Notes: a model not told the origin generated them from the sequence alone. DNA of 64,000 bases from Candidatus Omnitrophota bacterium (GCA_026387335.1 JAPLLX010000003.1:74230-138229); one strand, 5' to 3'. Shown: positions 3,453 through 30,907, counted from the stretch's first letter. Numbers and translations: made by a program.

Positions 3453-4730
3453 TTATCCTACTGATAAGGCTTTCCGTATTTTATCTTCTATCCCCGAAAG
3501 CGGCCCGATCAGGCTTAAATTAATGTTTTTGTCATCAAATATCTCAGCCGCGGCTTCCCGGATACTAGCCCTATCCACACGATTCACTTCAGCAATGATA
3601 TCCTCTAAAGAAAATGTTCTATCCAGCTTAAGAGTAGTTTCACCTATCCAAAGCATATGTTCTAAAGTATCCTCTAAGGCCAGCCTTAATTGGCCGATAT
3701 AAAATTCTTTCGCCCGCCTGAATTCACCGGCAGTAACCAGATTATTTCGGGTTTTCTTTAATTCTTTCAAAATCAGGGGTATAGCCTCTAATACTTGCTT
3801 ATTATCAATTCCCGCGTGCACAATAAACGCCCCGGTATCCTGAAAACGCTTGACCAGCGAACCTATCTCGTAGGCCAGCCCGCGTTTCTCCCGGATTTCA
3901 TCAAAGAGGCGCGAGGACATATTAGCGCCTAATATGACATGGAGCATGCCCAAGGCGTGTTTCAAAGGATGTTCCCTCTTAAAACTCCGGAATCCCAAAG
4001 CCATATGGGTCTGTTCGGTTTCTTTATGGAAAAGTTTAAAAGCCGGCGCGTCCTGATTTTCTCTGACTCGCTGAAAAGTGTTTAGCCTGTTAGCTGGGAG
4101 TCTGGAGAATATCTTATTTACAGAGCGCTCTAATTTTAGGCTATCCAGATTGCCGCAGGCGCTGACCACGATATTGGAAGCGGTATAATAGCTCTCTTTA
4201 AAATCTAACAGCTCTTTTCTGCCTATGCTCTTTACGGATTCAACCGTGCCTATGATGGGTGAACCCAGGGGCTGCTTTGGCCAGAGCAATTCATCCAGAA
4301 GCTCATACACATAACTCTGAGGAAGATCCCTGTACATCTTTAACTCTTCCAGAATGACTGTCTTTTCTTTTTTAATATCGCCTGTAAAAAGCAGGGGATT
4401 GATCACCATATCCGCTAAAATATTTAAGCCCGTATTCAGACGCGCAGCCGGCACTTTCACCAGATAGCAGGTAAGCTCTTCCGAAGTAAAACCGTTTAGG
4501 GACCCTCCGATACCCTCAATAGATTCCTTAAGCAGCCGGCAGGAATAGTTCTTGGTCCCCTTAAACAAAAGATGCTCTAAGAAATGCGCCGCGCCTTTGT
4601 TTCGTAAGCCCTCGTATCTTCCGCCCACATTTATCCATATACCCAACGCCGCCGACTCCCGCTTAGGCATATTATGGCTGATGATCTTTAATCCGTTATC
4701 TAAACGCGTCTTTTTATAAATATTTTTCAT
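3453..4730 (-). CDS. M16-family zinc metallopeptidase (insulinase/pitrilysin-like)
   Basis: 425 aa with the inverted zinc-binding motif HxxEH ('AHFLEHLLFKGT') near the N-terminus and a downstream glutamate region typical of M16 peptidases. Confidence 0.85.
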   Translation of the reverse strand: MKNIYKKTRLDNGLKIISHNMPKRESAALGIWINVGGRYEGLRNKGAAHFLEHLLFKGTKNYSCRLLKESIEGIGGSLNGFTSEELTCYLVKVPAARLNTGLNILADMVINPLLFTGDIKKEKTVILEELKMYRDLPQSYVYELLDELLWPKQPLGSPIIGTVESVKSIGRKELLDFKESYYTASNIVVSACGNLDSLKLERSVNKIFSRLPANRLNTFQRVRENQDAPAFKLFHKETEQTHMALGFRSFKREHPLKHALGMLHVILGANMSSRLFDEIREKRGLAYEIGSLVKRFQDTGAFIVHAGIDNKQVLEAIPLILKELKKTRNNLVTAGEFRRAKEFYIGQLRLALEDTLEHMLWIGETTLKLDRTFSLEDIIAEVNRVDRASIREAAAEIFDDKNINLSLIGPLSGIEDKIRKALSVG

Positions 4731-5512
4731 GCCTTTAACCCGCTGACAAAATTACTTACCCTTTTTACTAAATCAGCCTTACCGCTATTTTCCTTTATCT
4801 TCTTGACGATCGCGCTTCCGATAATAACGCCATCAGCAAAACTTTTAATCTCTCTGGCCTGAGACGAAGTTGATACGCCAAAGCCGACACAAACCGGCTT
4901 TTTGGTATATTTCTTGATCAGATTGATCTGCCTGCGGATCCCGGAATCAAGATTATTGCGCTCTCCGGTTACTCCGGTCAGAGAAACATAATAAATAAAA
5001 CCTTTAGAGACCCTGGAGATTAATTTTACTCTTTTCAGGCTGGAAGTCGGAGAAAGAAAACAAATCACATCCAGGCCTCGTCTGTTTGCCGCCTGGATAA
5101 AATCCCTGCCCTCTTCAGGAGGTAAATCCGGTATAATCAATCCGTCTACGCCGGATTCCTTGGCTTGGGCAATAAATTTTTTATCCGGAAAACAAAAGAC
5201 CGGATTGTAATAAGTCATCAGGCAAATAGGTATATTGACGCTTTTGCGGGCCTTCTTAACCAGATTCAATATATCAATAAGATGCGTGCCCTTCCTTAAA
5301 GCTTGGGAAGAAGCCTCCTGGATCACCGGGCCATCGGCCATAGGATCGGAAAACGGGACTCCCAACTCTAAAATATCCACTCCTATTTTATCAAACTCAT
5401 AAATAAGTTTTTCAGTTATATGGAGATTAGGGAAACCCGCGGTGATAAAAGCTATAAAAGCCTTTTTTCCTTTCTTTCTCAATTCTTGAAATTTTTTATC
5501 TATGCGGTTCAT
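4727..5512 (-). CDS. trpA: Tryptophan synthase alpha subunit
   Basis: 261 aa TIM-barrel protein with '[17 protein letters not shown]' and 'GFGVS' motifs. It is translationally coupled to trpB (4-nt overlap). Confidence 0.9.
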
Positions 5513-6696
5513 ATTTTGCCTTTAGTCACTATTCCCAAGTCCTTATCTCCCCTGCCGGATAAGCAGACTATAACAATTGATTTCCGGTTAATTTTCTTAG
5601 CTAACTTCTTTAAATAGGCGATAGCGTGCGCTGATTCTAACGCCGGAATTATTCCTTCTAACTTAGAAAGTAAATCAAACCCTTCCAGGGCTTCTTTATC
5701 GTTGATCGCGACATATTCAGCCCGGCCGATTTTCTTATAATAGGCATGTTCCGGCCCGACCCCGGGATAATCCAGCCCGGCAGAAATAGAATGCGTAAGG
5801 CTGACCTGGCCGAATTTATCCTCTAATAAACCTGACTTTGAGCCATGTAAAACGCCTATATCGCCGTTCACTAAAGTAGCCGCGTGTTTACCGCTAGATA
5901 ATCCTCTTCCGCCGGCTTCCACCCCGATAAACCTTACTTTTTTGTCATTAACAAACGGATAAAATAACCCCAGGGCATTACTTCCTCCGCCTACGCAGGC
6001 AACCAGGTAATCCGGCAGACGTTTTTCTTTCTTTTTAAGCTGGACCTTGGATTCGCTTCCGATCACCGACTGAAAATCCCTTACCAACATCGGATAGGGA
6101 TGCGGCCCGGCAACAGTACCGATGATATAATGCGTATCGCGCACATTAGTCACCCAATCGCGCAGAGCCTCGGTCATCGCGTCTTTTAAGGTCCGGGAGC
6201 CGCTTTTTACCGGGATCACATTCGCGCCCAGCAGTTGCATACGGAAAACATTGGGCTTCTGCCTTTCCATATCTTCCTGGCCCATATAAACATCACATTT
6301 TAATCCAAAGAGGGCCGCAACCGTAGCGGTAGCTACGCCATGCTGGCCCGCGCCGGTCTCCGCGATTACCCGCGGTTTTTTCATCCGCAGGCACAGAAGC
6401 GCCTGAGCCAGAGTATTATTTATTTTATGCGCGCCGGTATGTAAAAGGTCTTCCCTTTTAAGATATATTTTATTTATGCCTAGATGCCGGCTGAGCTTCT
6501 TAGCAAAATATAACGGCGTTGGCCGGCCGGCGTATTCATTTAAATAAAATTTAAGCTCCGTCTTAAACTGCTTATCTCTTCTCGCCTTTTTATATTCTTT
6601 TTCCAATTCATCCAGGGCAAAGATCAGCGTCTCCGGAACAAACCTGCCGCCAAATTCCTCAAAATGCCCGGATTTATCCGGTAATTTTTTTTCCAT
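5509..6696 (-). CDS. trpB: Tryptophan synthase beta subunit (PLP-dependent)
   Basis: 395 aa with 'HTGAHKINN' around the PLP lysine and the 'GGGSNA' glycine loop. Typical TrpB length. Confidence 0.95.
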
Positions 6697-7014
6697 TTAT
6701 AATGTAACCCTCTCCCAAAACATCTTTACGCCTTCAATCAAATCATTCCAAATAGGCCCGCCTAGCCCGGGGCCGGGGATATTCCACGGGTAATTATGCG
6801 CCGGGGAATAAAATATCCCGTAAAACATAGCCTTAATCAGCACAAAGGTCAAAGCTATAAAAATATTTACCAAAATTATGAAACCCACAAAGCCGATCAG
6901 GCAACCCAAAAGACAATTCAGCCATTTTTTCTTCTTCTTTAAAAATTCACCGCAATGCTTGCATTTCAGCGCCTCATCCTGTATCTCTTCCGCGCAATAC
7001 GGGCATCTTTTCAT
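6697..7014 (-). CDS. Small zinc-ribbon membrane protein (hypothetical) embedded in the trp operon
   Basis: 105 aa. It has an N-terminal CPYC...CKHC zinc ribbon followed by a poly-Lys stretch and one long hydrophobic helix. The start overlaps the trpF stop (7011-7014) and the stop abuts the trpB start, implying co-translation with the operon. Confidence 0.5.
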
Positions 7015-7622
7015 TTTAACGCCTCAATAAATTTCTTTATCTTTTTATGGTCCTTCTGGCCCGGTTTTGCTTCCAGCGCACTGGAGACATCCACCCAATC
7101 CGGATGAAGTTTGTTTATCGCGCTGAACACATTCGCGCTGGTTAATCCACCGGACAAAAAAACCTGACCACTTATTTTATCTATATTCTTTAATAAATTC
7201 CAGTTAAACTTTCTTCCTGTGCCTCCGGCCGCGTTTTTAGAGAAGGTATCAAAAAGGTAACCGAAAACCTTATATTTTAATATCGCGGATAAATCTAATT
7301 TTTTCTTTACCCGGAAAGCCTTGACGACTTTATAACCCTTAAATTTATTACAATATTCCGCGCTCTCATTCCCGTGGAATTGCAGCAGATCCAGATCGCA
7401 AAGCTGGGCGATTTTTTTTACCTGCGCCAATTTTTCATCGACAAATACGCCCACCCTTAAAATCTTTTTAGGCAGGATACGCGCGATATTTCTGGCCTTT
7501 AACGGCTGAATAAAGCGGGGGCTCTTCTTATAAAATACAAAGCCAATAGCATTTGCTCCGCTAAAAAGGCTGGCTAAGGCGTCTTCCAGATTCGTTATCC
7601 CGCAAATTTTTACCTTTACCAT
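7011..7622 (-). CDS. trpF: Phosphoribosylanthranilate isomerase
   Basis: 203 aa with 'VKICGIT' at the N-terminus and a C-terminal 'LSGGL' phosphate-binding region. It sits between trpC and trpB. Confidence 0.85.
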
Positions 7623-15236: not shown

Positions 15237-16626
15237 ACAAGTCTAAATACTTTTTGGCCGATGCCTCCCACGAAAAATTACATTTCATGGCTTTTTTAAC
15301 CAGCGCGCTCCAGCCGGCCTTATCCTTAAACGCGTCCAGCGCTTTCCTTATTGTCTTAACCAGCCGTATCCTGGAATAACTGTCAAAGATAAATCCGTTC
15401 TCTGAATTTACCGTGTCCGCCAAACCTCCTGTTTTAAAGACCAACGGGATAGTCCCGTACCTTAAGCTGATTAACTGGCCCAGGCCGCAAGGCTCATATC
15501 TGGAAGGCATAATAAATATATCGCTTCCGGCGTAAATCTTATGCGCCAGCGTATCATCAAATTTTAAGGCTAAAGATATTACTTTAGGGTATTTAGCGAC
15601 CATACTTTGCATGACCTCATGGTATTTTATATCGCCTGTCCCTAAAATTACCATCTGGATATTCATCTTGCATATCTCGTCAATTCCTTCAGCGAGGATA
15701 TCAAAACCTTTTTGCTCGGCTAACCTGGAAACAATCCCGAGTAACGGCACGTCTTTCTTTAAGGGAAGTTTACAGAGCGCCTGGAGGTCCTCTTTATCCT
15801 TAGCTTTACCCTCCGGAGAATCCGCGGAGAAATTCTTAGCAATAAATTTGTCGGATTGAGGATCCCAGATATCGTAATCCAGGCCGTTTAATATACCGAA
15901 AACAGAATTCCGGCGTTTATTCAATACCCCTTCTAAACCAAACCCGAATTCTTTAGTTTGAATCTCCTTAGCGTAGGTCGGGCTGACCGTATTAATGATA
16001 TCGGAAAAAATCATCCCGCCCTTAAGTATGTTCACCTGGCCGTAAAATTCCAGGCCTTCCATACTAAAAAGGCTCCAGTCCAGGCCCAGCTTCCCAAATT
16101 CATCCTTGGGGAAAAGCCCCTGGTAGCCGATATTATGTATTGTCAGGATCGTGCGTATATTTTTATAGAACGGGTCTTTGGCGTAAATCGTTTTTAAGAA
16201 TACCGGGACCAGCGCTGACTGCCAGTCGTGGCAATGGATAATATCCGGCTTAAAATTGATCTCTTTTAATAAATCCAGGGATTTCCTGCAGTAATAAGAA
16301 AAGCGGTCTAAATTATCTTTATGGTCGCCGTTCTTGTCTCCGTACAGGCCGTCGCGGTCAAATAAATCTGCGTTTTCAATAAAATAAACTTTAATATTTT
16401 TTCCTAAGACTCCGCTTAAAACTCCGTTCTTAGATGGTTTAAGATTAAATTTAGCTGCGTCTATCGCTTTATAACGCGGCATGATTATAATGATTTCCTG
16501 GTTTTCCTTCTCCAGGGCCAACGGCAGGGCTCCGGCTACATCCGCTAACCCGCCGGTCTTCGCAAACGGAACCACCTCTGACGCGCACATTACTATCTTC
16601 ATTTTACTTCCTCCATTTCCAGCCAA
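15211..16626 (-). CDS. glgA: Glycogen synthase (GT5, ADP-glucose type)
   Basis: 471 aa. 'MKIVMCASEVVPFAKTGGLADV' and 'KTGGLADTV' are the GlgA signature KTGGL motifs. Confidence 0.85.
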   Translation of the reverse strand: MAGNGGSKMKIVMCASEVVPFAKTGGLADVAGALPLALEKENQEIIIIMPRYKAIDAAKFNLKPSKNGVLSGVLGKNIKVYFIENADLFDRDGLYGDKNGDHKDNLDRFSYYCRKSLDLLKEINFKPDIIHCHDWQSALVPVFLKTIYAKDPFYKNIRTILTIHNIGYQGLFPKDEFGKLGLDWSLFSMEGLEFYGQVNILKGGMIFSDIINTVSPTYAKEIQTKEFGFGLEGVLNKRRNSVFGILNGLDYDIWDPQSDKFIAKNFSADSPEGKAKDKEDLQALCKLPLKKDVPLLGIVSRLAEQKGFDILAEGIDEICKMNIQMVILGTGDIKYHEVMQSMVAKYPKVISLALKFDDTLAHKIYAGSDIFIMPSRYEPCGLGQLISLRYGTIPLVFKTGGLADTVNSENGFIFDSYSRIRLVKTIRKALDAFKDKAGWSALVKKAMKCNFSWEASAKKYLDLYAKAKAKK

Positions 16627-19139
16627 TTATGACCCTTCTTTATATCCACTTTCACCGGGACATTAAGTTTTAAAGCGTTCTCCATCCTCTCCCGGACCAA
16701 CCCCGCCAAAGCAGGCAATTCATCTTTGGGTAAATCAAATAAAAGTTCATCATGGATCTGCAGGGCCATCCGCGATTTAAGCTCTTTCTTTTTAATCTCT
16801 CGGTCTATCGCGATCATGGCCAACTTGATTAAATCCGAAGCCGAGCCCTGTATGGGCGTATTCACGGCCTGCCGCTCGGCAAATTGCCTTACCGCCTGAT
16901 TTTTACTGTTTATCTGCGGCAGATACCTTCTCCTGCCCAACATCGTGGTGACGAAACCTTCTTTTTTAGCCTGGGCGATCTGGCTATCTATATATTTTTT
17001 AACTCCCGGATAACGGGAAAAATAAGCGTCAATAAAACTTTGCGCGTCTTCGAACGGAATACCTAGATCCTTGCTCAAGCCGTAAGAAGTAAGCCCGTAG
17101 ACAATACCGAAATTCACGCGTTTGGCCCGGTCGCGCATTTCACTGTTCACTTCTTTTTCCTCTACGCCATAGATCAGGGCGGCAGTCGCTTTATGTATAT
17201 CCAGGCCCCGCCTAAAAGCGGAAACCAGATTCTCATCTTCGCTTAAATGCGCCAAAATCCTTAAGTCAATCTGCGAATAATCGCAGGAGATAAGACAATT
17301 TTCTTTTCCGCCCGCGATAATGGCCTTGCGGATCTTAGAGCCTATCTCGGTCTTGATCGGTATATTCTGCAAGTTCGGATTGCTGGAACTTAAGCGCCCG
17401 GTTTCAGTAGCCGCCTGATTAAAAGAAGTATGCAGCCTGGCTGTCTTAGGGTCGGCTAATTCCAAAAGGGCATCAATATAAGTAGTTTTGAGTTTAGTCA
17501 GCTGACGGTATTCCAGCAACAACGCCGGAAGCTTATGTTTAGCGCAGAGCTTATTTAAAACATCTTCATCGGTTGAAGGCCCGGTCTTAGTCTTCTTGAT
17601 CACCGGCAGTTTTAACTCATCAAAAAGGACTACTCTTAATTGTTTAGGCGAATTAATATTAAACTCGGACCCGCTGGTTTTATAAATATCTTTGACCAGT
17701 TTAGTTAATTTCTCCTCTAATTCCAGCGAAAGCGATTTTAATAATTTTAGGTCCAGCTTTATACCCCACAGCTCCATACCGGCGAGCACCTCGGCCAAAG
17801 GCATCTCCGTATCGTAAAAAAGCTTATCCGCTTTCTTCTTATTCAACTCGACTTCCAGCTTCGGCTTTAAATCTTTGATCAGGCTTAAGGCTTCCGGAGG
17901 ACTGAATAATTTCCCGTGAGGAAATTTATCCAGATAATCTGAAGCAATAGCCTCTAAAGTATAACTGCCCTGAGAAGGATTTAAAACATAGGCGGCCAGC
18001 ATTGTATCAAAATACAAACCTTCCAGGCTAAAATCATTTTTAGCTAAAGATACTTTGAGTTTCTTAAGGTCATGGCTTATTTTTCTTATCTTAGGGTCAG
18101 CTAAAATATTTTTTAATCCGGGGTTATCCTTCTCCAAACGCAGGATTTTTCCTCCCTGATCAAAAACTAGATTATCCGGGCTATCCCCATAGAGAAACAG
18201 GTCTTCCTTAGATGCAATAAATTTCTTCAGATCTTTTTCACTCCACTCTTCTATTTTGATATCCGCGGCCGTAGCGTCTCCCAAATTCAATTCTTTTAAG
18301 AACTTCTTAAATTCCAGATGTTTGAATAAGCGGGCCAGTTCTTTAGCCTTAGCTTCGCCTATTTTAAGGTCTTGCGGGCTAAAATCCAGTTTTACGTCAT
18401 CCACCAATAGCGCCAGTTCTTTATTTAATTTTATCTGTTTAATATTTTCTTTTAGCGTTGCCCTTATCTTATCTTTCTTTATTTTTTCCGGGTCAGCCAA
18501 CAAATTATCCAGCGAACCAAATTCGCTGATCAGGCCTAAAGCGGTCTTCTCTCCGATCCCGGGTATTCCGGGTATATTATCCGCCGTATCGCCCATCAGG
18601 CTGATGACATCAGGGACTTGCGACGGTTTTACTCCGAAGCGCTGTAAAACCATTTTCTCGTCATAAGTTATCCCTTCATCCTTATACGGGCTATAAACCT
18701 CGATGTCCTTATCCACTAATTGTAATATATCTTTATCCGAACTGATGATCACGGTATGCATGCCTTTGGCCTGGGCTTCTTTGGCTAGAGTCGCGATCAC
18801 ATCATCCGCTTCATAACCGGCCTTTTCCAAAATCTTGATCCCGTAATTAGAAATTATCTCCTTAATAAAAGGGATCTGCGAAGAGAGGTCATCCGGCATC
18901 GGCGGCCGCTGGATCTTGTATTCAGCGAACTTTTTGGCCCGGAAAGTATCCCGGGAAACATCAAAACAAGCTGCCAGGTATTCCGGCTTATTCTCTTTTA
19001 ATAATTTATTTAATATATTTATAAAACCGTAAATAGCGCCGCTGGGCTGGCCAAAAGTTGTGCTTAACCCCCTTATCGCGTAAAACGCGCGATAGCAAAA
19101 AGCTGTCGCGTCTATCAGGTATAATCTATTTTTATTCAT
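16599..19139 (-). CDS. polA: DNA polymerase I
   Basis: 846 aa. It has an N-terminal 5'-3' exonuclease (FEN-like), a central region and a C-terminal family A polymerase palm with 'DYSQIDLRILAHLS' (motif A) and 'RRxAKxxNFGxxYG' (motif B). Confidence 0.95.
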   Translation of the reverse strand: MNKNRLYLIDATAFCYRAFYAIRGLSTTFGQPSGAIYGFINILNKLLKENKPEYLAACFDVSRDTFRAKKFAEYKIQRPPMPDDLSSQIPFIKEIISNYGIKILEKAGYEADDVIATLAKEAQAKGMHTVIISSDKDILQLVDKDIEVYSPYKDEGITYDEKMVLQRFGVKPSQVPDVISLMGDTADNIPGIPGIGEKTALGLISEFGSLDNLLADPEKIKKDKIRATLKENIKQIKLNKELALLVDDVKLDFSPQDLKIGEAKAKELARLFKHLEFKKFLKELNLGDATAADIKIEEWSEKDLKKFIASKEDLFLYGDSPDNLVFDQGGKILRLEKDNPGLKNILADPKIRKISHDLKKLKVSLAKNDFSLEGLYFDTMLAAYVLNPSQGSYTLEAIASDYLDKFPHGKLFSPPEALSLIKDLKPKLEVELNKKKADKLFYDTEMPLAEVLAGMELWGIKLDLKLLKSLSLELEEKLTKLVKDIYKTSGSEFNINSPKQLRVVLFDELKLPVIKKTKTGPSTDEDVLNKLCAKHKLPALLLEYRQLTKLKTTYIDALLELADPKTARLHTSFNQAATETGRLSSSNPNLQNIPIKTEIGSKIRKAIIAGGKENCLISCDYSQIDLRILAHLSEDENLVSAFRRGLDIHKATAALIYGVEEKEVNSEMRDRAKRVNFGIVYGLTSYGLSKDLGIPFEDAQSFIDAYFSRYPGVKKYIDSQIAQAKKEGFVTTMLGRRRYLPQINSKNQAVRQFAERQAVNTPIQGSASDLIKLAMIAIDREIKKKELKSRMALQIHDELLFDLPKDELPALAGLVRERMENALKLNVPVKVDIKKGHNWLEMEEVK

Positions 19140-19195: not shown

Positions 19196-19933
19196 TTATC
19201 TTGCTCTCGCCTTGGCCTGGATCTGCTTCTCCACAAAATCTTCCGCTTCCTTATTCGAAGAGTCCAGATATTGAGCGTCCAACGCCCCGGTTATGGCTTT
19301 AGGATAATCCTTTTTACCGTAATTAATCTTGGCTTCTTTAATCTTCTTAGCGGCCAGGTCCTGGCTACTCAGCCTTGAGGAGAATTTATCATTAGTAACT
19401 TCGCGCATCAAGTCCACAATATCGCTTTTGCGCATCTGCTTTCCGGGATCCGGGGACAAAGAAAGCTGTATATCTTCTATGCGCTGCTGGGCCTTGAATG
19501 TCCAGGGGTCATTCTCATCCCCTAATTCCACTCTTCTCTTCCAATAATAAGCGGCATTAGCTAAATCCCGCTTACTTTCATAAAAAAGAGCGAGGTTGCT
19601 GTAGGCGCCTAAGAAGCAGGGGTCGATCTTTATGACCTGCAGATAGCTCTCTTCCGCCCTATCCGGCATATCATAAGCTTCATAAATTATACCCAAGTCA
19701 TTATAGGCATCCGGATATGTTGGATCAGCCTCTATCGCTTTTTGATATGATTTCAAGGCGTTTTCCAGATCGCCTAATTCCTGAAGCTTTAAGCCTTCGC
19801 TGCGGTATTCCCTGGCCTGCTCCTGCATCCCGCTTAACTCATTCTGTTTATCGTTGTCAACCTTATCTGCGGCAAAGAGATAGGCAGTAAACGCGAATAT
19901 AAAACAATTGACTATTAGGGTTGTCTTCTTCAA
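19196..19933 (-). CDS. Secreted tetratricopeptide-repeat (TPR) protein
   Basis: 245 aa with an N-terminal signal-like hydrophobic segment followed by several TPR-like repeats (AxxYxxLG..Y, 'AYNDLGIIYEA', 'AYSNLALFYES'). Confidence 0.6.
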   Translation of the reverse strand: MKKTTLIVNCFIFAFTAYLFAADKVDNDKQNELSGMQEQAREYRSEGLKLQELGDLENALKSYQKAIEADPTYPDAYNDLGIIYEAYDMPDRAEESYLQVIKIDPCFLGAYSNLALFYESKRDLANAAYYWKRRVELGDENDPWTFKAQQRIEDIQLSLSPDPGKQMRKSDIVDLMREVTNDKFSSRLSSQDLAAKKIKEAKINYGKKDYPKAITGALDAQYLDSSNKEAEDFVEKQIQAKARAR

Positions 19934-20007
19934 GTTTTCTTTGAGGAATTTGATTGGTATGTACCAGTTGTTATTATATACGCTAAATACCGCGCGTCAA
20001 GAAAAAT

Positions 20008-22188
20008 CTACATCAACGGCTCAAGATTTAGCGCCGGATGCTTGACTTTTTCTAAGAAAGCCAGCAGCTCATCCGAACTAGTAGCAACTGTCTCATCCGC
20101 GATCTTTTCTAATAAGTCCGGCTGGCCGATTTCTTGGGCCCGCCTCTTTAACTTATCCCCTAAAAGCTCTTTTAACTCCTTGGGCATCCAAACTAAGCGC
20201 TCTAACCCGCCTTCGGCAGAAATAAACTTTTTACTTAAGATATAGAGCTTGCCTACGCCCAGGAACCCCGGAGTCTGCACCCCTCCTCCTACTGAACCGG
20301 CTAAAGTAGTAAAGCTCATTCCGGAAGGAGTCATACCGGAGAAATCGCGGTGCACGATCATCACTCCGTTGACTTCTGGGATTATCGCTAAGATACATTC
20401 AAAACATCCGCAGGAAGATTGCGGTGATTCCATAAGTGAATACATGCTGACCTTATCTATGCTCTTGTTGGATTTCTGCTTTACAAACTCGTTCACATTC
20501 TCCCACTGGCCTAATTTTGAATCAAGCGTAGCTCCCTTTGCTATAGGTTGGTTCGGGCCGGTAGGCGTGATCTCAAAAGAAGCTTTGGCGTCCAACCAGG
20601 AATAGGCTCCGCAAAGGCCAAGGCGTTCAGGAGTCACAATACATACATGATTAGGCGCAAAAGATTGGCACAATAAACAGGAATAATACGTATCCACGCT
20701 TTCATCGGTCATGCCGCTTATGCGCTCGTCGCGCTCATCAAATACTTTTTTCGCTCCCCCTAACAGCCTATCCACATCTTCCTGCTTGGTATAAAGCTTG
20801 ACCTGGATTTTATCCACGATAGCGCTATATTCCTGATGCAGCATCGCGTGTAAAATCACGCCGATATGCTTTAAGCGGAAGCCTTTGGCAAAGGCGTCTT
20901 GGCTTATTCTGATCCAATCCATATCCCGCTGGCCGACGTGCATCAAGCCCATGGCATAATTTACGAAACGGTGGATCTGCCTCTCTAAAATCGGCTCAAA
21001 ATCCTTTTGCATCTTACGGCCGTAAACATCAACAATAATCGCTAAAGGCAAGGATTTAACTCCCGCCGCTAACGCGTCAATATCCGGGCCGATTATCTCG
21101 ATCTTGCCGTCATCAACTTCATTCTCTTTTTTTGAGCTTAAAAATTCAAAAGCGCTGCTGGCCTTGCCTCCGAATTCTACCTGTAACTGCTCTTTTCTTA
21201 CGCGCTCACCTTCAAAAGCCGCGGCATAGGGAACCGGAACAGCCACTTGGGCCATCTTTACTTTAATTCCGCGGGTAAGCAGGCACTTGGAGGGAAGTTT
21301 CTTATAATCCTTTTCCGTAACCAAAGCCTCAAATAAAGTCGTCTCGATTTTGCCTAATTGCGGAACTTCTAAATCCGTAATAATCGGTAATCCGAAAGCT
21401 AAAGCGCCCAGGCCGGTAGCTACGATTACTTCATCCACATGCCCCAGGAGTAGAACAAACGCGGGCACGCGGTTACGGATATACTCCGCTATTCCTTCCC
21501 ATTGCCCGGGTTTAAATCCGCCGTAAATCAAGGGCGCGCGCACCGCAAAGTTAACCGCGTAAATCGCCGAGAGATAATCCTCTCCCAGCGGAACAATATA
21601 ATTATCTAAACCTAACTCTATTCCCTTATTTTCCAGCTGCTTCTGTAAAGTCTTTCCGTTGATATTGCCGACTAATAAACTCACGATACTCTTAGATTGA
21701 AAATCACGTATCAAGCTGACTGCCGCGTCTTCATCTTTGGCCGGGCCTAAAATTACCGCGATACCGGCTATTCTTCCGTCAACCAGCTGCAGGCCCAAAG
21801 AGCGCAGTATTTTATCCGGGATAAAACCGATTCCGTTCTTCGGATGCTCCTTATTCATTACCGCCAAGCCCGCTAAAATTTCTTCACAAAGCAACGTCGA
21901 GACGCCTTTATTCAAAATCCCGCCTAAATAAGGAATGACTAAGCCGGTTTTGGTAGCCACACCTTTACTTAAGGATTCAATTTCTTTGAGGGCCAAAGAT
22001 AAATCCCCTAATTTTTTGACTTCTATATTCAGAAGAGCGTTAATTAAAGGAAAATAATAATTAGTTTCCGGAAATTCAACCGCTGTATCTTTACCGGATT
22101 TCGCGATCGTCTTATCCAAAGATTCTCTTGTAAGATTCAATACCGCTGCCGCGCCCTTCTCTCCTAATTGCACTAAGACGTCTGACAT
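20008..22188 (-). CDS. acsB: CO-methylating acetyl-CoA synthase, beta subunit (A-cluster Ni-Ni-[4Fe-4S]) of the CODH/ACS complex
   Basis: 726 aa. It is collinear along its length with bacterial AcsB and carries the diagnostic C-terminal motifs 'CQSFAPNHVCIVTPER.GLCGA.SWLDAKAS' and 'SCGCFE.I.AI.PE.NG' (the Cys-Gly-Cys A-cluster ligands). Confidence 0.9.
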   Translation of the reverse strand: MSDVLVQLGEKGAAAVLNLTRESLDKTIAKSGKDTAVEFPETNYYFPLINALLNIEVKKLGDLSLALKEIESLSKGVATKTGLVIPYLGGILNKGVSTLLCEEILAGLAVMNKEHPKNGIGFIPDKILRSLGLQLVDGRIAGIAVILGPAKDEDAAVSLIRDFQSKSIVSLLVGNINGKTLQKQLENKGIELGLDNYIVPLGEDYLSAIYAVNFAVRAPLIYGGFKPGQWEGIAEYIRNRVPAFVLLLGHVDEVIVATGLGALAFGLPIITDLEVPQLGKIETTLFEALVTEKDYKKLPSKCLLTRGIKVKMAQVAVPVPYAAAFEGERVRKEQLQVEFGGKASSAFEFLSSKKENEVDDGKIEIIGPDIDALAAGVKSLPLAIIVDVYGRKMQKDFEPILERQIHRFVNYAMGLMHVGQRDMDWIRISQDAFAKGFRLKHIGVILHAMLHQEYSAIVDKIQVKLYTKQEDVDRLLGGAKKVFDERDERISGMTDESVDTYYSCLLCQSFAPNHVCIVTPERLGLCGAYSWLDAKASFEITPTGPNQPIAKGATLDSKLGQWENVNEFVKQKSNKSIDKVSMYSLMESPQSSCGCFECILAIIPEVNGVMIVHRDFSGMTPSGMSFTTLAGSVGGGVQTPGFLGVGKLYILSKKFISAEGGLERLVWMPKELKELLGDKLKRRAQEIGQPDLLEKIADETVATSSDELLAFLEKVKHPALNLEPLM

Positions 22189-23042
22189 CTCTCTCCCTTC
22201 ATTTGGCTGATAATATGATCCACGAGCATCATACTGATTATTACGCTATCCTTAGCTACGACGCTTCCGCAGGCAAAAATATCCTTAACCGTAGTCCGCA
22301 GGAAACCGTCAACAACGATAATATCGTTCTCTACCCGCACATCCGTATTCTTTAGGAAATCTATGTTCGATTTATAATCATCTATAAATAAAACCGCGCA
22401 GGCAGAGATCACTTTCCCGCTGGCCAGCTTCACGGCCTGAATTTGCCCTTCTCCGATCACCTCGGCGGCTGCATCATTGATTATTTCCACATACTTAGGA
22501 GTTAGAGACGGATCAAAGACCTTACGGGTCAAAAACTTCACTTCTACGCCGTACTTTTCCGCGATTGCTTCCGCTATCCTTAAAGCAAAACTATTCCCTC
22601 CGGCTACGCAAACCGGCTCGGATATGTAACTCTTGAGGAATTCTTTGGTATCATCCAAGGTATATAACCGATAGGCCCCTGCTTTTCTTGCGCCGGGTAT
22701 ATCGGGCAATGTAGGACTTCTGCCAGAAGCAATAACCAATAAATCGTAGCTTAAGTTCCCCTTATCCTTAAAATAAAGCAGTTTTTTCTGGGTATTCAGG
22801 CTCCCGACCTTCTTGCCTTTTAGAAAATTGATATTTTGCTGCTGATAAAAATCTTCGCTGCAGAGAAATATATTATTTTCCGGCACGATCCCGCTGATCA
22901 GGTCAGCGAGCTTAAAATGGTCGTAGGGAGGGTAATTCTCCTCACTGATAAGGGTAATGTGGCAATCCTTATCTTTCTCCCTTAAACGCAGGGCTATATT
23001 GTGTCCGGAAACCGTAGCTCCGATAATGACTATATTATTCAT
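22173..23042 (-). CDS. Small FAD/NAD(P)-binding pyridine nucleotide-disulfide-type oxidoreductase domain protein
   Basis: 289 aa. It has an N-terminal dinucleotide-binding 'IVIIGATVSGHNIA' (GxGxxG-like) and a second Rossmann 'LVIASGRSP'. It lacks the C-terminal dimerisation domain of full-length enzymes. It overlaps acsB and metF, so it is in the same operon. Confidence 0.6.
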   Translation of the reverse strand: MNNIVIIGATVSGHNIALRLREKDKDCHITLISEENYPPYDHFKLADLISGIVPENNIFLCSEDFYQQQNINFLKGKKVGSLNTQKKLLYFKDKGNLSYDLLVIASGRSPTLPDIPGARKAGAYRLYTLDDTKEFLKSYISEPVCVAGGNSFALRIAEAIAEKYGVEVKFLTRKVFDPSLTPKYVEIINDAAAEVIGEGQIQAVKLASGKVISACAVLFIDDYKSNIDFLKNTDVRVENDIIVVDGFLRTTVKDIFACGSVVAKDSVIISMMLVDHIISQMKGERCQTS

Positions 23043-23908
23043 AGATTTGAAGCCTCTAAAACCCGCGGCACAACCTTATCCCAGCCGATAGGCATGATAT
23101 GGATGCCGTCGCACATAGGTTTTAATTTCTTGATCAGTCGCGAGGCTATATCAACGGATTGAGCGGTTTTATCCTTTGTTTCTTCCATCTCTTTTATCAA
23201 ATCATCCGGGACGCATACGCCGGCGACATTCTTATTCATATAGCGGGCCATGCCGGCTGATTTTAATAAAACAATTCCGGCCATAATTTTAGTCTTTAAG
23301 TGTTGGGTTTTATTCAGGAAATTTTCAAATACTTTCAGATCATAGACTGCCTGGGTCTGAAAAAATTCCGCGCCGGCGGCGATCTTTTTTTCCATCTTCA
23401 TTATCTGCGGCTCTAACGGATCTGCTCCCGGATTAACCACAGCGCCCATGCAGAATTTCGGCGGCTCGCCGATTAATTTGTTCCCTTTCATATCGGCTCC
23501 GGCCTGAAGCTTTTTAACTACTTCTAACAACTGCACTGAATCCAGGTCAAATACGGGTTTGGCTTCCGGATGGTCGCCTAACGCCGGATGGTCGCCGGTA
23601 AGGATTAAAAGATTTTCTATGCCTAATGCGGCGGCGGATAAAATATCCGACTGTAGGGCCAAGCGGTTGCGGTCGCGGCAGGTTAGCTGGTATATCGGTT
23701 CAAAACCGTGTTGTTTAAGCAGAAAACATACCGCTAAAGACCCCAGGCGCATTACCGAGCTCTGTAAGTCCGTGACATTGATGGCGTCAACTTTGGCCCG
23801 GATTAATTCCGCGTCTTCCAAAAGCTGTTTAGTCTCAATCCCCTTGGGCGGCCCGATCTCCAAGGTCACCACAAATTTACCAGATAGTAATTTTTCTTTG
23901 AATGTCAT
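23039..23908 (-). CDS. metF: 5,10-methylenetetrahydrofolate reductase
   Basis: 289 aa TIM-barrel MTHFR. It has the acetogen-type short MetF N-terminus 'FVVTLEIGPPKG', and 'LILTGDHP' and 'GAEFFQTQAVYD' are conserved. Confidence 0.85.
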   Translation of the reverse strand: MTFKEKLLSGKFVVTLEIGPPKGIETKQLLEDAELIRAKVDAINVTDLQSSVMRLGSLAVCFLLKQHGFEPIYQLTCRDRNRLALQSDILSAAALGIENLLILTGDHPALGDHPEAKPVFDLDSVQLLEVVKKLQAGADMKGNKLIGEPPKFCMGAVVNPGADPLEPQIMKMEKKIAAGAEFFQTQAVYDLKVFENFLNKTQHLKTKIMAGIVLLKSAGMARYMNKNVAGVCVPDDLIKEMEETKDKTAQSVDIASRLIKKLKPMCDGIHIMPIGWDKVVPRVLEASNL

Positions 23909-23912
23909 ATTC

Positions 23913-24758
23913 CTAGCGTTGCTGAGACTTAGCTGCCGCGACTAAATTCCGCATTAACATAGTTACAGTCAAGGGCCCGACGCCTCCGGGAACAGGCGTA
24001 ATGAATGAGGCGCGTTTTTCTGCTACTTCAAACTCTACATCCCCGACTATTTTTTCATTAACCCGGTTTATGCCTATATCTATAACCAGCGCGCCTTCTT
24101 TAATCCAATCGCCCTTGATTAATCCGGCTTTACCGACCGCGACCACCAAAACTTCAGCGCGCCTTACATGCTCTTCTAATTTTCCGGCCTTGCTTGTGCC
24201 GATATGCGCTACCGTGACTGTGGCAAATTTATCCAATAATAAAAGCGCTAAAGGCTTCCCCACTATCTCGCTATGGCCCACAATCACGACTTCTTTTCCG
24301 TATAAATCAATCCCGGTAGAAGTAATCAACTCCATAGCGCTGGCCGCGGTGCAAGGAATAAGTTTGGCCTTGCCGAATAAAATCTTTCCGATATTTGCCG
24401 GATGCATACCCTCAATATCTTTGTCCGCGGAAATGAACTGACTTATTTTTTTATAATCTATTGCTGGCGGAAGAGGCATCTGGATAATAATACCGTTGAC
24501 TGAATTATCGGAATTTAATTTACGCACAAATTCTATTAAAGCGTCTTCGGTGATATCCTGGGGCAGGTTTTGCAGACGGTATTCAATACCTAAATTTTCC
24601 GCGGCTTTACTTTGAGATTTAACATAAGCCAGGGCTCCGGGATTATCACCGACCAGAATACTGGCTAAAACCGGCTTATTTTTTAAAGCAGCCACCTCCA
24701 GCTTTATTCCTTCCTTTATCTTTTCGGCTAACGGCTTACCCTCTAATAATTTTGCCAA
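23913..24758 (-). CDS. folD: Bifunctional methylene-THF dehydrogenase / methenyl-THF cyclohydrolase
   Basis: 281 aa with 'GRSNIVGKP'-like 'GHSEIVGKPLALLL' and 'TPVPGGVGPLT' signature motifs. Confidence 0.95.
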   Translation of the reverse strand: MAKLLEGKPLAEKIKEGIKLEVAALKNKPVLASILVGDNPGALAYVKSQSKAAENLGIEYRLQNLPQDITEDALIEFVRKLNSDNSVNGIIIQMPLPPAIDYKKISQFISADKDIEGMHPANIGKILFGKAKLIPCTAASAMELITSTGIDLYGKEVVIVGHSEIVGKPLALLLLDKFATVTVAHIGTSKAGKLEEHVRRAEVLVVAVGKAGLIKGDWIKEGALVIDIGINRVNEKIVGDVEFEVAEKRASFITPVPGGVGPLTVTMLMRNLVAAAKSQQR

Positions 24759-25296
24759 CTTTACCCTCCATATCTGTTCTGATCTTTTTAACCAGTTTGG
24801 CCTTTTGGCTTAATTCTTTGCGGATGGCCTTTTTAAGCTTTGTATCATTAAGCGCCTTTAAATTTATCTCAACATTAAAATAGGCGCTGGCAAAAGCGGA
24901 CTCTAAAAGTATAGCCGCTACTGCCACATCGCTGATTAAATTAATATTGCCTTTCTTGACTAATGGCGGGCAAAGCTTGATCCCTTCCAGCGCCAGCCGG
25001 GCCACCATAAAAGGCGTATTCAGCGCGTCGCGTAAATTCTTGCTTTTGTAGGCGATGACATCCAGATCAGTAAGTCTTAAGAATTCCATCCTTAAAATCT
25101 CGGATTTATCTAAAATATTATTTAACTCTTTTTCGTATTTGGCGTATTTAGGCTTCCCCAAAGTAAAATTAACCACCATACTGATCAAGGCCACTCCCAG
25201 CGCGGCATTAAAGGCAGCGGCTGAACCGCCTCCCGGCGCAGGCAGCCTGGCCGCTAAATCATCCAGGTATTTTTTAAGCGATTCGTCTTTATACAT
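24736..25296 (-). CDS. fchA: Cyclodeaminase/cyclohydrolase family protein (FTCD C-terminal domain; probable methenyl-THF cyclohydrolase FchA-like)
   Basis: 186 aa all-helical protein with the 'PAPGGGSAAA' glycine-rich motif typical of formiminotransferase-cyclodeaminase C-domain/FchA proteins. It is the first gene of the folD-metF-acsB cluster. Confidence 0.7.
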   Translation of the reverse strand: MYKDESLKKYLDDLAARLPAPGGGSAAAFNAALGVALISMVVNFTLGKPKYAKYEKELNNILDKSEILRMEFLRLTDLDVIAYKSKNLRDALNTPFMVARLALEGIKLCPPLVKKGNINLISDVAVAAILLESAFASAYFNVEINLKALNDTKLKKAIRKELSQKAKLVKKIRTDMEGKVGKIIRG

Positions 25297-28736: not shown

Positions 28737-29312
28737 TTATGTAAATTCAATTTCGTATTTCGCCTTAAATTTTTCAAACCAATCGAGAAGGTCTCTACAG
28801 AAATATGAAATGATTAAACCGAATTTTAGTTTAAATTTTGTAAACTTATGAGAACCCTGCGATCCAAAATTTTCTATATTTATATTAAGTAAATTTAGAA
28901 TGAAAGAATCCACTAAGACAGAAAACGTTAACATTTTTGCTCCTTTTTCCATAATCTCCCAATCACTTTTAATCGCCTTGTAATATTGGGCATACCGAAT
29001 TACTATAATATTATGTACACCCTTAAGACCCTCTTCTGAAATGTCTGGGTGCCGAGCAGGATTATATATTGCTTTATGCATACCATCTAAAACTATTTTA
29101 ATATTTTCTTCCCCAAGGTAAGCAAATATTCTTTGAAAACAATAAGTTAGAAGAAATACCCAAAGATAAAAAAGTTCCCATTCAATTCTTTTATCATCTT
29201 GCAATATCTTTTCTTCTTTTATGACTTCTCCCCAAGCTGATGATGAAAATTTACTTATCGCTTCTTTGCAAAATGTCTCTACAAATATTTCATAAGGTAT
29301 GGATTGTGACAT
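28737..29312 (-). CDS. Hypothetical protein (191 aa), distal gene of the A+T-rich 3-gene insert. Possible paralog of the 30329-30907 product
   Basis: The ORF is very A+T-rich with K/I/F/N/Y-rich codon usage, unlike the neighbours. The start lies 4 nt after the stop of the 307-aa ORF, indicating translational coupling. It has one long hydrophobic segment and the motif 'MHKAIYNPARHPD'. Confidence 0.5.
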   Translation of the reverse strand: MSQSIPYEIFVETFCKEAISKFSSSAWGEVIKEEKILQDDKRIEWELFYLWVFLLTYCFQRIFAYLGEENIKIVLDGMHKAIYNPARHPDISEEGLKGVHNIIVIRYAQYYKAIKSDWEIMEKGAKMLTFSVLVDSFILNLLNINIENFGSQGSHKFTKFKLKFGLIISYFCRDLLDWFEKFKAKYEIEFT

Positions 29313-29316
29313 TTAT

Positions 29317-30240
29317 TTACCCTTTTTGTAACTGACCAACAGAAGGTTTTTTAAGTTTCAGGAGTTCTGCTATCAACTGCTTAACTTCCGAATGAAGATT
29401 TAAATCCTCAAATTGCCCTCTAATGTTTGTAATTTCAAGAAGCAACCTTGAAGATGAAACTAATGCCATTTTTGCTGTTTCTAAATCTGCCCTTGGATTT
29501 ACATCTCTCTTGTCTGGCTTCTCTTTAAACAAACCCAAACCTATAAAACTTGAGTGTGTTGCCATAGAGAATTTTTTATAAATCCTATACCATTCCAAAC
29601 CTTGATTATCACAAACTCTAAAAATATCTTCTATCTTTTCGTATTCTGGTTTATACCAGAAATTTCTTAGTTTGCCTTTTTTAATAAATTCAGATTTATA
29701 TTCTTCTGCCCTCTTTTTGTATTGTGGATTTAATCTATTTAATTGGAAGTTAACTTGACCCATATTGAAGTCTTTTTCATATTCGTTGAAATCTTCATCC
29801 AGGTAACTATTTAATAAATCATGTGCATAGAATTTAAACGCCATATATTCGCTATCTTTCTTAACGATAGCTACTGAATTCGTAAAGCATTCTAGGAGGC
29901 TTCGTATAATTACAGGGGCTACGGAAACCCATCCATCTTCACACATAGATAAAATACTCCTATCTAAAATAACTGCTCTCTCTCCTATTATATACAGACA
30001 CCCTCTTGCTAAAATATCTTTTCCGGCTAAAGGACTTGGGGGGTTGTATTTTTTGAAAGACGCCAAGTTTGTTTTAACAGCGAAATCTATGACCTTATTA
30101 TAAAAATCTAAATACGCAAATACTTCAGGGGTGGACTTAACGAACCCTTTTGAGCCAGTTATTTTCCCTCTTCTATATCCTTCTCTGACACCTCTTTTAA
30201 ACCCTTCTATGTATACCTTTTTAGCAATAAATTTTAACAT
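29317..30240 (-). CDS. Hypothetical protein (307 aa), middle gene of the A+T-rich 3-gene insert
   Basis: It has an ATG with an upstream AAGGAG. Composition matches its flanking partners, not the host genes. I recognise no catalytic motif. It has a basic N-terminus (KRGVREGYRRGK) and is predicted largely alpha-helical from the residue pattern. Confidence 0.5.
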   Translation of the reverse strand: MLKFIAKKVYIEGFKRGVREGYRRGKITGSKGFVKSTPEVFAYLDFYNKVIDFAVKTNLASFKKYNPPSPLAGKDILARGCLYIIGERAVILDRSILSMCEDGWVSVAPVIIRSLLECFTNSVAIVKKDSEYMAFKFYAHDLLNSYLDEDFNEYEKDFNMGQVNFQLNRLNPQYKKRAEEYKSEFIKKGKLRNFWYKPEYEKIEDIFRVCDNQGLEWYRIYKKFSMATHSSFIGLGLFKEKPDKRDVNPRADLETAKMALVSSSRLLLEITNIRGQFEDLNLHSEVKQLIAELLKLKKPSVGQLQKG

Positions 30241-30328
30241 AATCTAATATCTACTCCTTTAATTATTCCGTGGCACATTACTTGATTATCTTTTCTCCGA
30301 GGAATTAAGTATCGTACCCAGGACTCCG

Positions 30329-30907
30329 TTATTTAATTCTAAATCTTTCTGCCGCTAATTTTAATAATTCAAAATCATCAATGCTAATACTCTTCGGCAT
30401 ACCTATGGAATCCAGAAATTTCATAGTGTCTGCTCTGTCTTTCAATAAATGAGGATACTTAAGCCAAAACCATATTTCGAACATTACAACAGATTGGGAT
30501 TGTCTATATTTCAAACATTCATTAGATGCTATATGCCTAAATAAATAGCATGCCTCAATAATACGAAAAGGTAATGTATCTGTTTCATAAGATAAAACGT
30601 CATCTAGGTCATTATCAGCATGTTTAAAGAAATTTTGAGCCTTGTGAATAGTATTTATCCATAATTTCTTATACTCTGGCTTTATATAATCAGAATCATG
30701 GAGAAAAGCTTCAACGCCATATTTTTTTCCTAATGGCATTAGTACGCCTATGGCAGCTCCTACCAATGTTTCAATAACTACAGGATTAGCCTTATCAAAA
30801 AATAAAAAAATAGCTTCATTTAGTTGTATTTCCGCGGCTTGAATCTTCTTAAAATTAATCTTCATAATCCATTTTTGGTAATTTTTAGAAAAGTACTGAA
30901 TTTTCAA
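30329..30907 (-). CDS. Hypothetical protein (192 aa, or 178 aa from the internal ATG at 30865), first gene of the A+T-rich insert
   Basis: The track start is a TTG. The in-frame ATG lies 14 codons in. It has a hydrophobic segment 'VVIETLVGAAIGVLMPLG' and the motif 'IHKAQNFFKHADND', which resembles that of the 28737-29312 product. Confidence 0.45.
   Translation of the reverse strand: MKIQYFSKNYQKWIMKINFKKIQAAEIQLNEAIFLFFDKANPVVIETLVGAAIGVLMPLGKKYGVEAFLHDSDYIKPEYKKLWINTIHKAQNFFKHADNDLDDVLSYETDTLPFRIIEACYLFRHIASNECLKYRQSQSVVMFEIWFWLKYPHLLKDRADTMKFLDSIGMPKSISIDDFELLKLAAERFRIK

Follow-up and report, generated by a model that had tools for sequence, protein, structure and literature searches.

An acetyl-CoA synthase locus without adjacent carbon monoxide dehydrogenase and corrinoid protein genes in a Candidatus Omnitrophota genome

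Acetyl-CoA synthase (ACS, encoded by acsB) is usually seen as one half of the carbon monoxide dehydrogenase (CODH)/ACS machine, and the ACS of Carboxydothermus hydrogenoformans can act without bound CODH. In Dehalococcoides mccartyi, an incomplete Wood-Ljungdahl pathway (WLP) reportedly retains ACS without CODH and, in the cleavage direction, gives methyl-tetrahydrofolate (methyl-THF) with release of CO; this organism is also said to have no MetF and to carry acsC and acsD beside acsB. The present study concerns an acsB gene in a 64-kb stretch of a Candidatus Omnitrophota metagenome-assembled genome (the window, meaning this whole stretch), where it stands last in a compact cluster with genes of the methyl branch. 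We think it probable, with considerable room for doubt, that the window holds a reduced Omnitrophota acetyl-CoA synthase locus that is independent of CODH and for which the corrinoid partners are encoded at other sites.

The canonical acs cluster of Moorella, Clostridium and some Omnitrophota (loci L077 and L083; closed genome CP070837.1) contains homologous fchA, folD, metF and acsB genes in the same order and on the same strand as the window. The window differs from it in having no cooC, cooS, cooF, acsC, RACo, acsD, acsE or fhs, in a truncated FNOR, and in the housekeeping genes that follow acsB; in complete-cluster relatives acsC comes directly after acsB, whereas acsC, acsD and acsE are not adjacent to it here. 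The monomeric ACS of C. hydrogenoformans (1RU3) shares the three-domain architecture and the A-cluster ligands of the window's protein; however, its gene lies in an acs cluster with CODH and the protein also occurs in a CODH/ACS complex (7ZKJ), whereas the window has lost the CODH gene and carries a diverged docking domain. The Dehalococcoides-type pathway is not matched either, as the window has a conserved MetF and no adjacent acsC or acsD. Within the same phylum, a partial WLP of the Velamenicoccus archaeovorus type is described by Seymour et al. 2023 (Nat Microbiol, PMC10066038), where some Omnitrophota species, V. archaeovorus among them, have AcsB-E but neither AcsA/CooS/CooF nor formate dehydrogenase, CO rather than CO2 is proposed as the carbonyl substrate of the "AcsB-E complex", and other species retain CooS/F. 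The window resembles this type in its methyl branch and AcsB and in having no AcsA/CooS/CooF within its length, but differs in that Fhs and AcsB-E are reported as present there, whereas fhs and acsC-acsE are missing here even at the sites where relatives carry them.

The five genes of the cluster, which the initial annotation had described as co-directional and tightly packed, are open reading frames (ORFs) on the minus strand, with protein lengths in amino acids (aa):

24736-25296, minus strand: fchA-like gene, 186 aa; Pfam FTCD_C (PF04961), 156.8 bits; methenyl-THF cyclohydrolase type
23913-24758, minus strand: folD, 281 aa, TTG start; THF_DHG_CYH (116 bits) and THF_DHG_CYH_C (211 bits)
23039-23908, minus strand: metF, 289 aa, MetF-type methylene-THF reductase; Pfam MTHFR (121 bits)
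22173-23042, minus strand: FNOR remnant, initially called a small FAD oxidoreductase, 289 aa; Pfam Pyr_redox_2 (106 bits)
20008-22188, minus strand: acsB, 726 aa; NCBIfam NF040764 at 997.9 bits against a cutoff of 800, residues 11-726

Packing is close throughout, with 1 nucleotide (nt) between the yraN stop and the fchA start, a 23-nt overlap of fchA and folD, 4 nt between folD and metF, and overlaps of 4 nt between metF and the FNOR remnant and of 16 nt between the remnant and acsB. The Pfam and NCBIfam results bear out the earlier naming of fchA-like, folD, metF and acsB, whereas the small FAD oxidoreductase is not an independent enzyme. The label "FchA-like" is used because the NCBIfam FchA model scores 140.7 against a cutoff of 275; similarly, no NCBIfam FolD model reaches its curated cutoff (best 313.2 against 355). 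FolD is taken here to be a bifunctional methylene-THF dehydrogenase/methenyl-THF cyclohydrolase, and no metV gene adjoins metF. The methyl-branch cluster is compact, as first proposed, but incomplete: fhs is found neither in the window nor between yraN and fchA, where relatives have it.

The assignment of AcsB is secure. The protein is a full-length bacterial type, above the family cutoff and complete in its three domains, CODH_A_N (PF18537, 64 bits), CdhC (PF03598, 220 bits) and ACS_CODH_B_C (PF19436, 411 bits). The A-cluster motifs noticed at the outset, CLLCQSFAPNHVCIVTPERLGLCGA at residue 504 and SCGCFEC at residue 592, align residue for residue with C. hydrogenoformans ACS (7ZKJ_B) and are invariant across all locus groups and clades, so that the four cysteines for the [4Fe-4S] cluster and the Cys-Gly-Cys for the Ni-Ni site are intact. 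The best solved structures are likewise C. hydrogenoformans ACS (1RU3 and 7ZKJ_B, E 1e-208), with Moorella 1OAO also matched. Compared with its nearest relatives, AcsB has a dN of 0.08 and a rough dN/dS of ~0.045, level with MetF (dN 0.07 and a rough dN/dS of ~0.04 against L001 and L003) and under polA and glgA; no other gene of the block is as strongly conserved as acsB and metF. The protein is 100% identical to NCBI entry P0001 ("Candidatus Omnitrophica bacterium"), and its close homologues number hundreds, nearly all labelled Omnitrophota.

The uncoupling of acsB from CODH and corrinoid genes, claimed in the initial annotation, holds across the window, which extends 20 kb from acsB in one direction and ~42 kb in the opposite one. 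A greedy ORF map gave 65 ORFs of at least 70 aa, all scanned against Pfam. Among the 60 ORFs outside the cluster, those with Pfam matches are housekeeping genes and seven have no match at all; none matches the families checked for cooS (Prismane), acsC/acsD (CdhD/FeS), acsE (Pterin_bind), cooC (CbiA), RACo (RACo) or fhs (FTHFS), and no match to cooF was found. A search of the window by tblastn with Omnitrophota CooS, CooF, Fhs, AcsC, RACo, CooC, AcsD and AcsE returned only noise (E of at least 0.1), and no remnants of the lost genes, looked for in the same way, turned up. With no Prismane-family ORF in the 64 kb, the co-location of a CODH gene with acsB that marks a bifunctional CODH/ACS does not occur here.

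Comparison with other Omnitrophota places this arrangement within a series. Window proteins were searched by tblastn against 80 species-representative loci with 10-kb flanks, and gap ORFs were scanned with Pfam. The order tgt-trmD-rplS-rnhB-yraN-(fhs)-fchA-folD-metF-X-acsB-TPR-polA-glgA is kept down to 56% AcsB identity, and its core from yraN to polA is seen in more than 60 species-level genomes; this recurrence makes the arrangement a stable feature of the clade rather than an accident of one genome or one assembly. The organisation is therefore unusual, as had been stated, in comparison with model acetogens, but standard within a large Omnitrophota clade. Four states can be distinguished:

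S0, complete: fhs-fchA-folD-metF-cooC-cooS-cooF-FNOR-acsB-acsC-RACo-cooC-acsD-acsE; L077, L083, L087-L090 and closed genomes CP070837.1 and CP070780.1
S1: as S0 through acsB, then TPR-polA in place of acsC; L036 and ~25 others
S2: cooS and cooF lost, FNOR at 65-78% of its length; the window, L001, L003, L025 and others
S3: ~120 aa of FNOR fused in frame to the AcsB N-terminus; L004-L011, L013-L017 and others

The gene fhs lies between yraN and fchA in S0, S1 and some S2 loci, and the S3 fusion accounts for many AcsB calls of 841-868 aa. The families listed with the most complete pathways in PMC10066038 include QZM4-1-77 and QZM4-1-127, and the isolate names match the S1 loci L036 and L052. As far as gene order and sequence similarity go, the series shows the window cluster to be derived from a complete Omnitrophota Wood-Ljungdahl arrangement. 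In the window's clade the acsC-to-acsE block no longer adjoins acsB and both cooS and cooF have been deleted; in the window itself fhs is missing from its usual site and FNOR is down to a 289-aa fragment. In the proposed order of events the corrinoid genes moved away first, cooS and cooF were then deleted, and FNOR was finally shortened and, in sister lineages, fused to AcsB. We give almost no credence to a chimeric assembly, or to a recently transferred acsB island in a housekeeping region. Nothing specific speaks for either, beyond the origin of the sequence from a metagenome-assembled genome, whereas dozens of assemblies obtained independently in different studies share the yraN/fchA, metF/FNOR/acsB and acsB/TPR/polA junctions, there is abutment or overlap between neighbouring genes, and the GC content across 20-26 kb (0.43-0.47) is that of the window on average.

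Several loci depart from this series. In L071, L074 (1-12623), L076, L101 and L102, metF is followed by acsB-acsC-RACo-cooC-acsD-acsE without cooS, cooF or FNOR, and this lineage appears to have lost the CODH module independently while leaving the corrinoid genes in place. In L093 (1423-4491) and L094 (3-2575), which represent one metagenome lineage, NuoE-like, NuoF-like and Fer2_4/Fer4 proteins that resemble HydBC or electron-bifurcating modules replace FNOR directly upstream of acsB. The complete-type cluster of L095 (4181-7779 and 11345-13883) has a cooS called at 537 aa, an FNOR split into 233 and 197 aa and a split RACo, which could reflect real decay or assembly errors. An intein lies inside AcsB in L081 (6227-9991) and L082 (6164-9991), from the closed genomes CP070837.1 and CP070780.1, and in P0030; these proteins have 1254-1275 aa, with Intein_splicing and LAGLIDADG_3 within the ACS_CODH_B_C region. 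A second Pterin_bind (AcsE-like) gene is found a few genes past acsE in the complete-type clusters of L083 (17621-18409), L088 (17623-18411) and L089 (17841-18638); it is preceded by panB and a gene of the ApbA family (ketopantoate reductase-like) and followed by a CbiA/DRTGG gene and apbE.

The gene immediately upstream of acsB carries a trace of the CODH module. CooS-CooF-FNOR is a CODH module that has been described but not characterised biochemically (Inoue et al. 2019, PMC6344411; see also Whitham 2015; Geelhoed 2016, PMC4703632), and the 289-aa protein stands in the place of FNOR and matches residues 1 to ~275 of full-length FNORs, which have 401-448 aa in the alignment and 421-436 aa in cooS-cooF-FNOR modules; tblastn with the L036 FNOR covers residues 1-275 (E 6e-37). 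The window differs from the module in that cooS and cooF are not adjacent and metF adjoins the remnant directly. Full-length FNORs consist of Pyr_redox_2 and a C-terminal Rubredoxin_C domain, whereas the 289-aa protein has Pyr_redox_2 only, with its entire C-terminal domain gone and no Rubredoxin_C-like domain left. In the alignment it retains the N-terminal FAD fold, but the NAD(P)H-binding GxGxxG motif is lost (GGGLIG to AGGNSF, with a 14-aa deletion after the motif) and the FAD GD motif is altered (TAGDV to CGSV). Judged by its alignment, the supposed small FAD oxidoreductase is what is left, shortened and with degenerate motifs, of the FNOR from a cooS-cooF-FNOR module. A decaying pseudogene was considered and ruled out by the rough dN/dS of 0.09-0.12 against L001 and L003, similar to that of yraN and rnhB. 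In other lineages the fragment has become part of AcsB: P0029 and P0047 (1029 aa) are single polypeptides with a long FNOR fragment, and P0062 and many others (~850 aa) carry a central one. The fragment would accordingly no longer act as an NAD(P)H oxidoreductase and, because it is fused to AcsB in sister lineages, may have been retained as an AcsB-associated module.

A second trace lies within AcsB itself. In the solved CODH/ACS structures of Moorella and Carboxydothermus, it is the N-terminal domain that attaches ACS to CODH and contains the CO tunnel. When AcsB is divided into N-terminal (1-316), middle (317-482) and C-terminal (483-726) domains and the cooS-less clade that includes the window is treated as S2/3, the fractional identities between groups are:

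S1 against S0: N 0.73, middle 0.60, C-terminal 0.68
S2/3 against S0: N 0.41, middle 0.60, C-terminal 0.68
S2/3 against S1: N 0.43, middle 0.71, C-terminal 0.75
within S1: N 0.78, middle 0.71, C-terminal 0.75

In its middle and C-terminal domains S2/3 is thus no further from S1 than S1 loci are from each other, whereas its N domain is only 0.41-0.43 identical to that of CODH-bearing relatives, which share 0.73-0.79 among themselves; the CODH-docking domain is not conserved in the window's protein. In a midpoint-rooted neighbour-joining tree of AcsB as a single protein, the cooS-less loci, including the window, form a single clade on a long stem, and the closeness of S2/3 and S1 in the other two domains indicates that this stem comes from acceleration confined to the N domain. 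The divergence is independently repeated, more weakly, in other cooS-less lineages (L071, L074, L076, L101, L102 and L066), where N-domain identity to S0 is 0.49-0.59 and that of the middle and C-terminal domains 0.63-0.72, compared with an N-domain identity of 0.77-0.78 in cooS-bearing loci at equal middle and C-terminal distance. L059, an S1 locus with no cooS or cooF beside acsB, has a small drop in the N domain (0.69 against 0.78). A domain swap was also considered as the source of the divergence and is unsupported: a search of 1.84 billion representative proteins gave no donor lineage, only three full-length members of the same clade having N-domain identity of at least 60% and all others, including every representative outside the clade, at most 45%. 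We infer that AcsB of the window's clade has probably ceased to bind CODH, because the divergence is specific to the N domain, found no donor lineage in that search and has been replicated independently.

These observations bear directly on the default expectation of the initial annotation, namely an ordinary CODH/ACS whose cooS/acsA and acsCDE genes lie elsewhere in the genome, so that a canonical complex is formed and the gene order alone is unusual. The window is only part of a genome and the acsC block is demonstrably mobile in the phylum, both of which accord with such scattering. However, the docking domain has 41-43% identity where CODH-bearing relatives have 73-79%, and cooS-less lineages of separate origin show the effect again; deletion of the cooS-cooF-FNOR module took place at the locus itself, leaving a degenerate FNOR stump; and cooS-less Omnitrophota species appear in the published gene-content analysis (PMC10066038). 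A scattered but canonical complex is consequently considered very unlikely.

If the window is instead a reduced, CODH-independent locus, its AcsB would act on its own as an acetyl-CoA synthase, as does the monomeric C. hydrogenoformans enzyme, interconverting methyl-THF-derived methyl groups, free CO and CoA with acetyl-CoA. Methyl groups would be supplied through the presumably co-transcribed FchA-like protein, FolD and MetF, and the corrinoid iron-sulfur protein (CFeSP), methyltransferase, RACo and CooC would come from outside the window, as from the trp operon in L100 and L134 or from another context in L099. The net flux could be either CO-dependent acetyl-CoA synthesis or acetyl-CoA cleavage.

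The whereabouts of the corrinoid genes in related organisms were traced through AcsC. Homologue searches were seeded with L067 and L032, and the contexts of 11 Omnitrophota AcsC were examined; none of the 11 comes from a polA-type genome (one in which the TPR gene and polA follow acsB), and all lie directly after acsB in complete-type clusters. The polA-type AcsC clade is 51-53% identical to the seed and hence falls outside the best 120 matches. A metagenome scan found it in L100 (a 114-kb contig) and L134, where acsC-RACo-cooC-acsD-acsE lies between trpF and trpB (L100:10001-15919; L134:10001-16046). Both contigs read glgA-coaE-rho-prfA-prmC-aroA-trpG-trpD-trpC-trpF, a 178-aa ORF, acsC-RACo-cooC-acsD-acsE and trpB; L100 goes on with trpA, an M16 peptidase, CNNM and rsfS, whereas in L134 an additional ORF of 437 aa precedes trpB, at which the contig stops. 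The 5-kb fragment L108 shows parts of trpD and trpC ahead of its acsC (4010-5017) and breaks off within that gene. The flanks of L100 and L134 share the gene order of the window downstream of polA, and their flanking proteins are nearest to those of the S2 locus L025 (rho 91-94%, glgA 75-79%). In this lineage the block for CFeSP, RACo, CooC and methyltransferase thus shares the strand of acsB and lies ~13 kb downstream of it, past the 10-kb locus flanks. AcsC of L100, L134, L108 and L099 forms its own clade, with 65-72% identity to L100 AcsC and at most 60% to all others, and the different upstream context of acsC in L099 implies that the block moved at least once.

A tryptophan operon is an unexpected place to find a corrinoid protein module. 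In L099 (2995-5719), acsC of the stand-alone clade directly follows ORFs of 134 and 222 aa, which, going by their N-terminal sequences alone, may be FmdE-like and LarB-like, respectively, with a tsaD-like gene further upstream.

The corresponding site in the window is occupied by other sequence:

7011-7622, minus strand: trpF
6697-7014, minus strand: trpF/trpB junction, with only a 105-aa zinc-ribbon membrane ORF (Pfam Zn_ribbon_3)
5509-6696, minus strand: trpB

The proviso of the initial annotation, that cooS/acsCDE genes close by would make the organisation less unusual, can be answered in part: acsC to acsE lie ~13 kb from acsB in the lineage of L100 and L134, and their site in the window is empty. 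Another explanation is that AcsB is a true orphan, with CFeSP, AcsE, RACo, CooC, CODH and Fhs lost throughout the genome, and that, together with the FNOR-derived fragment, it either has a non-canonical role or was orphaned too recently to have decayed. The empty trpF/trpB site, without remnants, at the position that holds the block in L100 and L134 (with L108 agreeing upstream) fits this explanation, as do the loss of fhs, cooS, cooF and the FNOR C-terminus one after another at the locus, the fact that 0 of the 11 AcsC contexts come from a polA-type genome, and the recurrent fusions of FNOR fragments with AcsB, which hint at a new partnership. However, AcsB and MetF are the most conserved proteins of the block across many species (dN 0.07-0.08) and all A-cluster ligands are kept, which would be difficult to explain if the only known methyl donor and the Ni-insertion factor had disappeared. 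Moreover, L100 and L134, whose flanks match the cooS-less clade, keep the block, L099 shows that another placement is possible, AcsB-E are reported for cooS-less species by Seymour et al. 2023 (PMC10066038), and the evidence for loss spans 64 kb of the genome. An orphan AcsB is hence regarded as unlikely. It is quite unlikely that AcsB, freed from CODH and from CFeSP/methyltransferase alike, works with a catalytically dead FNOR-derived domain in an undescribed reaction or with an undescribed source of methyl groups or CO.

Several points weigh against the reading that we favour, a reduced, CODH-independent ACS with its corrinoid partners encoded elsewhere. The 64 kb covered of this genome yielded no genes for CFeSP, methyltransferase, RACo or CooC, and the acsC-to-acsE block is absent from the window's trpF/trpB site, where tblastn detected no remnants. 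A pathway in the course of being lost would account equally well for the disappearance of fhs, cooS, cooF, cooC and half of FNOR, and no physiological source of CO is known. The AcsB tree sets the cooS-less clade apart from the cooS-bearing polA-type clade, and because of this placement synteny and the distances of the middle and C-terminal domains form part of the basis for the order of events. Finally, dS is saturated (1.2-2.7), which leaves the dN/dS values only rough.

The cooS-less pattern of gene content is already known from PMC10066038, and the account there is one of gene content only. A keyword search of passages of its text and of supplements gave no mention of gene order, the FNOR remnant, N-domain divergence or acsC-acsE in a trp operon, and the other Omnitrophota papers searched contain nothing on acs gene order. 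Not found in the searched literature, therefore, are the conserved position of the cluster among housekeeping genes, its reduction in steps, the FNOR remnant with its fusion to AcsB, the N-domain-specific divergence of AcsB, and the CFeSP block in the trp operon together with its absence there in the window. The locus and its relatives provide a natural stepwise series of CODH/ACS disassembly across dozens of species, throughout which strong selection on the catalytic core of AcsB persists and the CODH-docking domain alone is freed from constraint. This raises the question of the role of a CODH-free ACS in ultra-small, possibly predatory or parasitic anaerobes, and cautions that acsB in metagenomes is not a safe marker of CO2-fixing acetogenesis. 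If the corrinoid partners were truly missing genome-wide, the A-cluster would be operating in a new biochemical context.

The surroundings of the cluster agree with the neighbours named at the outset, a TPR protein and polA downstream and yraN and rnhB upstream:

19973-20000, minus strand: sigma-70-like promoter, TTGACG-16-TATAAT, 11/12 consensus, within the 74 nt that separate the acsB stop from the TPR gene
19196-19933, minus strand: TPR lipoprotein-like gene, conserved downstream neighbour of acsB
16599-19139, minus strand: polA, conserved downstream neighbour; with the TPR gene it defines the polA-type arrangement

The promoter is a consensus match only, in a region whose total of promoter-like sites is not above the shuffled expectation, and no convincing terminator was found behind acsB. 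Its position ahead of the TPR gene is suggestive of acsB as the end of a transcription unit, and the cluster may run on from rnhB-yraN as part of a long unit from tgt. In the window as a whole, the minus strand carries 64 of the 65 mapped ORFs, an extreme bias, and every 2-kb bin has a negative GC skew. One flank of the cluster holds argS, rsfS, the trp operon, aroA, prmC, prfA, rpmE, rho, coaE, glgA, polA and TPR; the other begins with yraN, rnhB, rplS, trmD, tgt, queA, ruvB, trpS, infB, nusA and proS and continues with ispG, dxr, uppS, purA, serA, clpP, tig, lptB, lptC/A and kdsD/A/B. The presence of kdsA, kdsB, kdsD, lptB and lptC/A is in keeping with the diderm lineage with acetyl-CoA pathway genes that had been proposed.

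Two further stretches of the window stand out. An ORF of 583 aa (53201-54952, minus strand) between serA and an HMGL-like gene has no Pfam match at E 1e-4. Between tgt and queA, positions 28737-30907 have a low GC content (0.35-0.38, against ~0.45 elsewhere) and carry a DUF5677 protein (29317-30240) and two ORFs without a Pfam match; this stretch may be a small acquired island.

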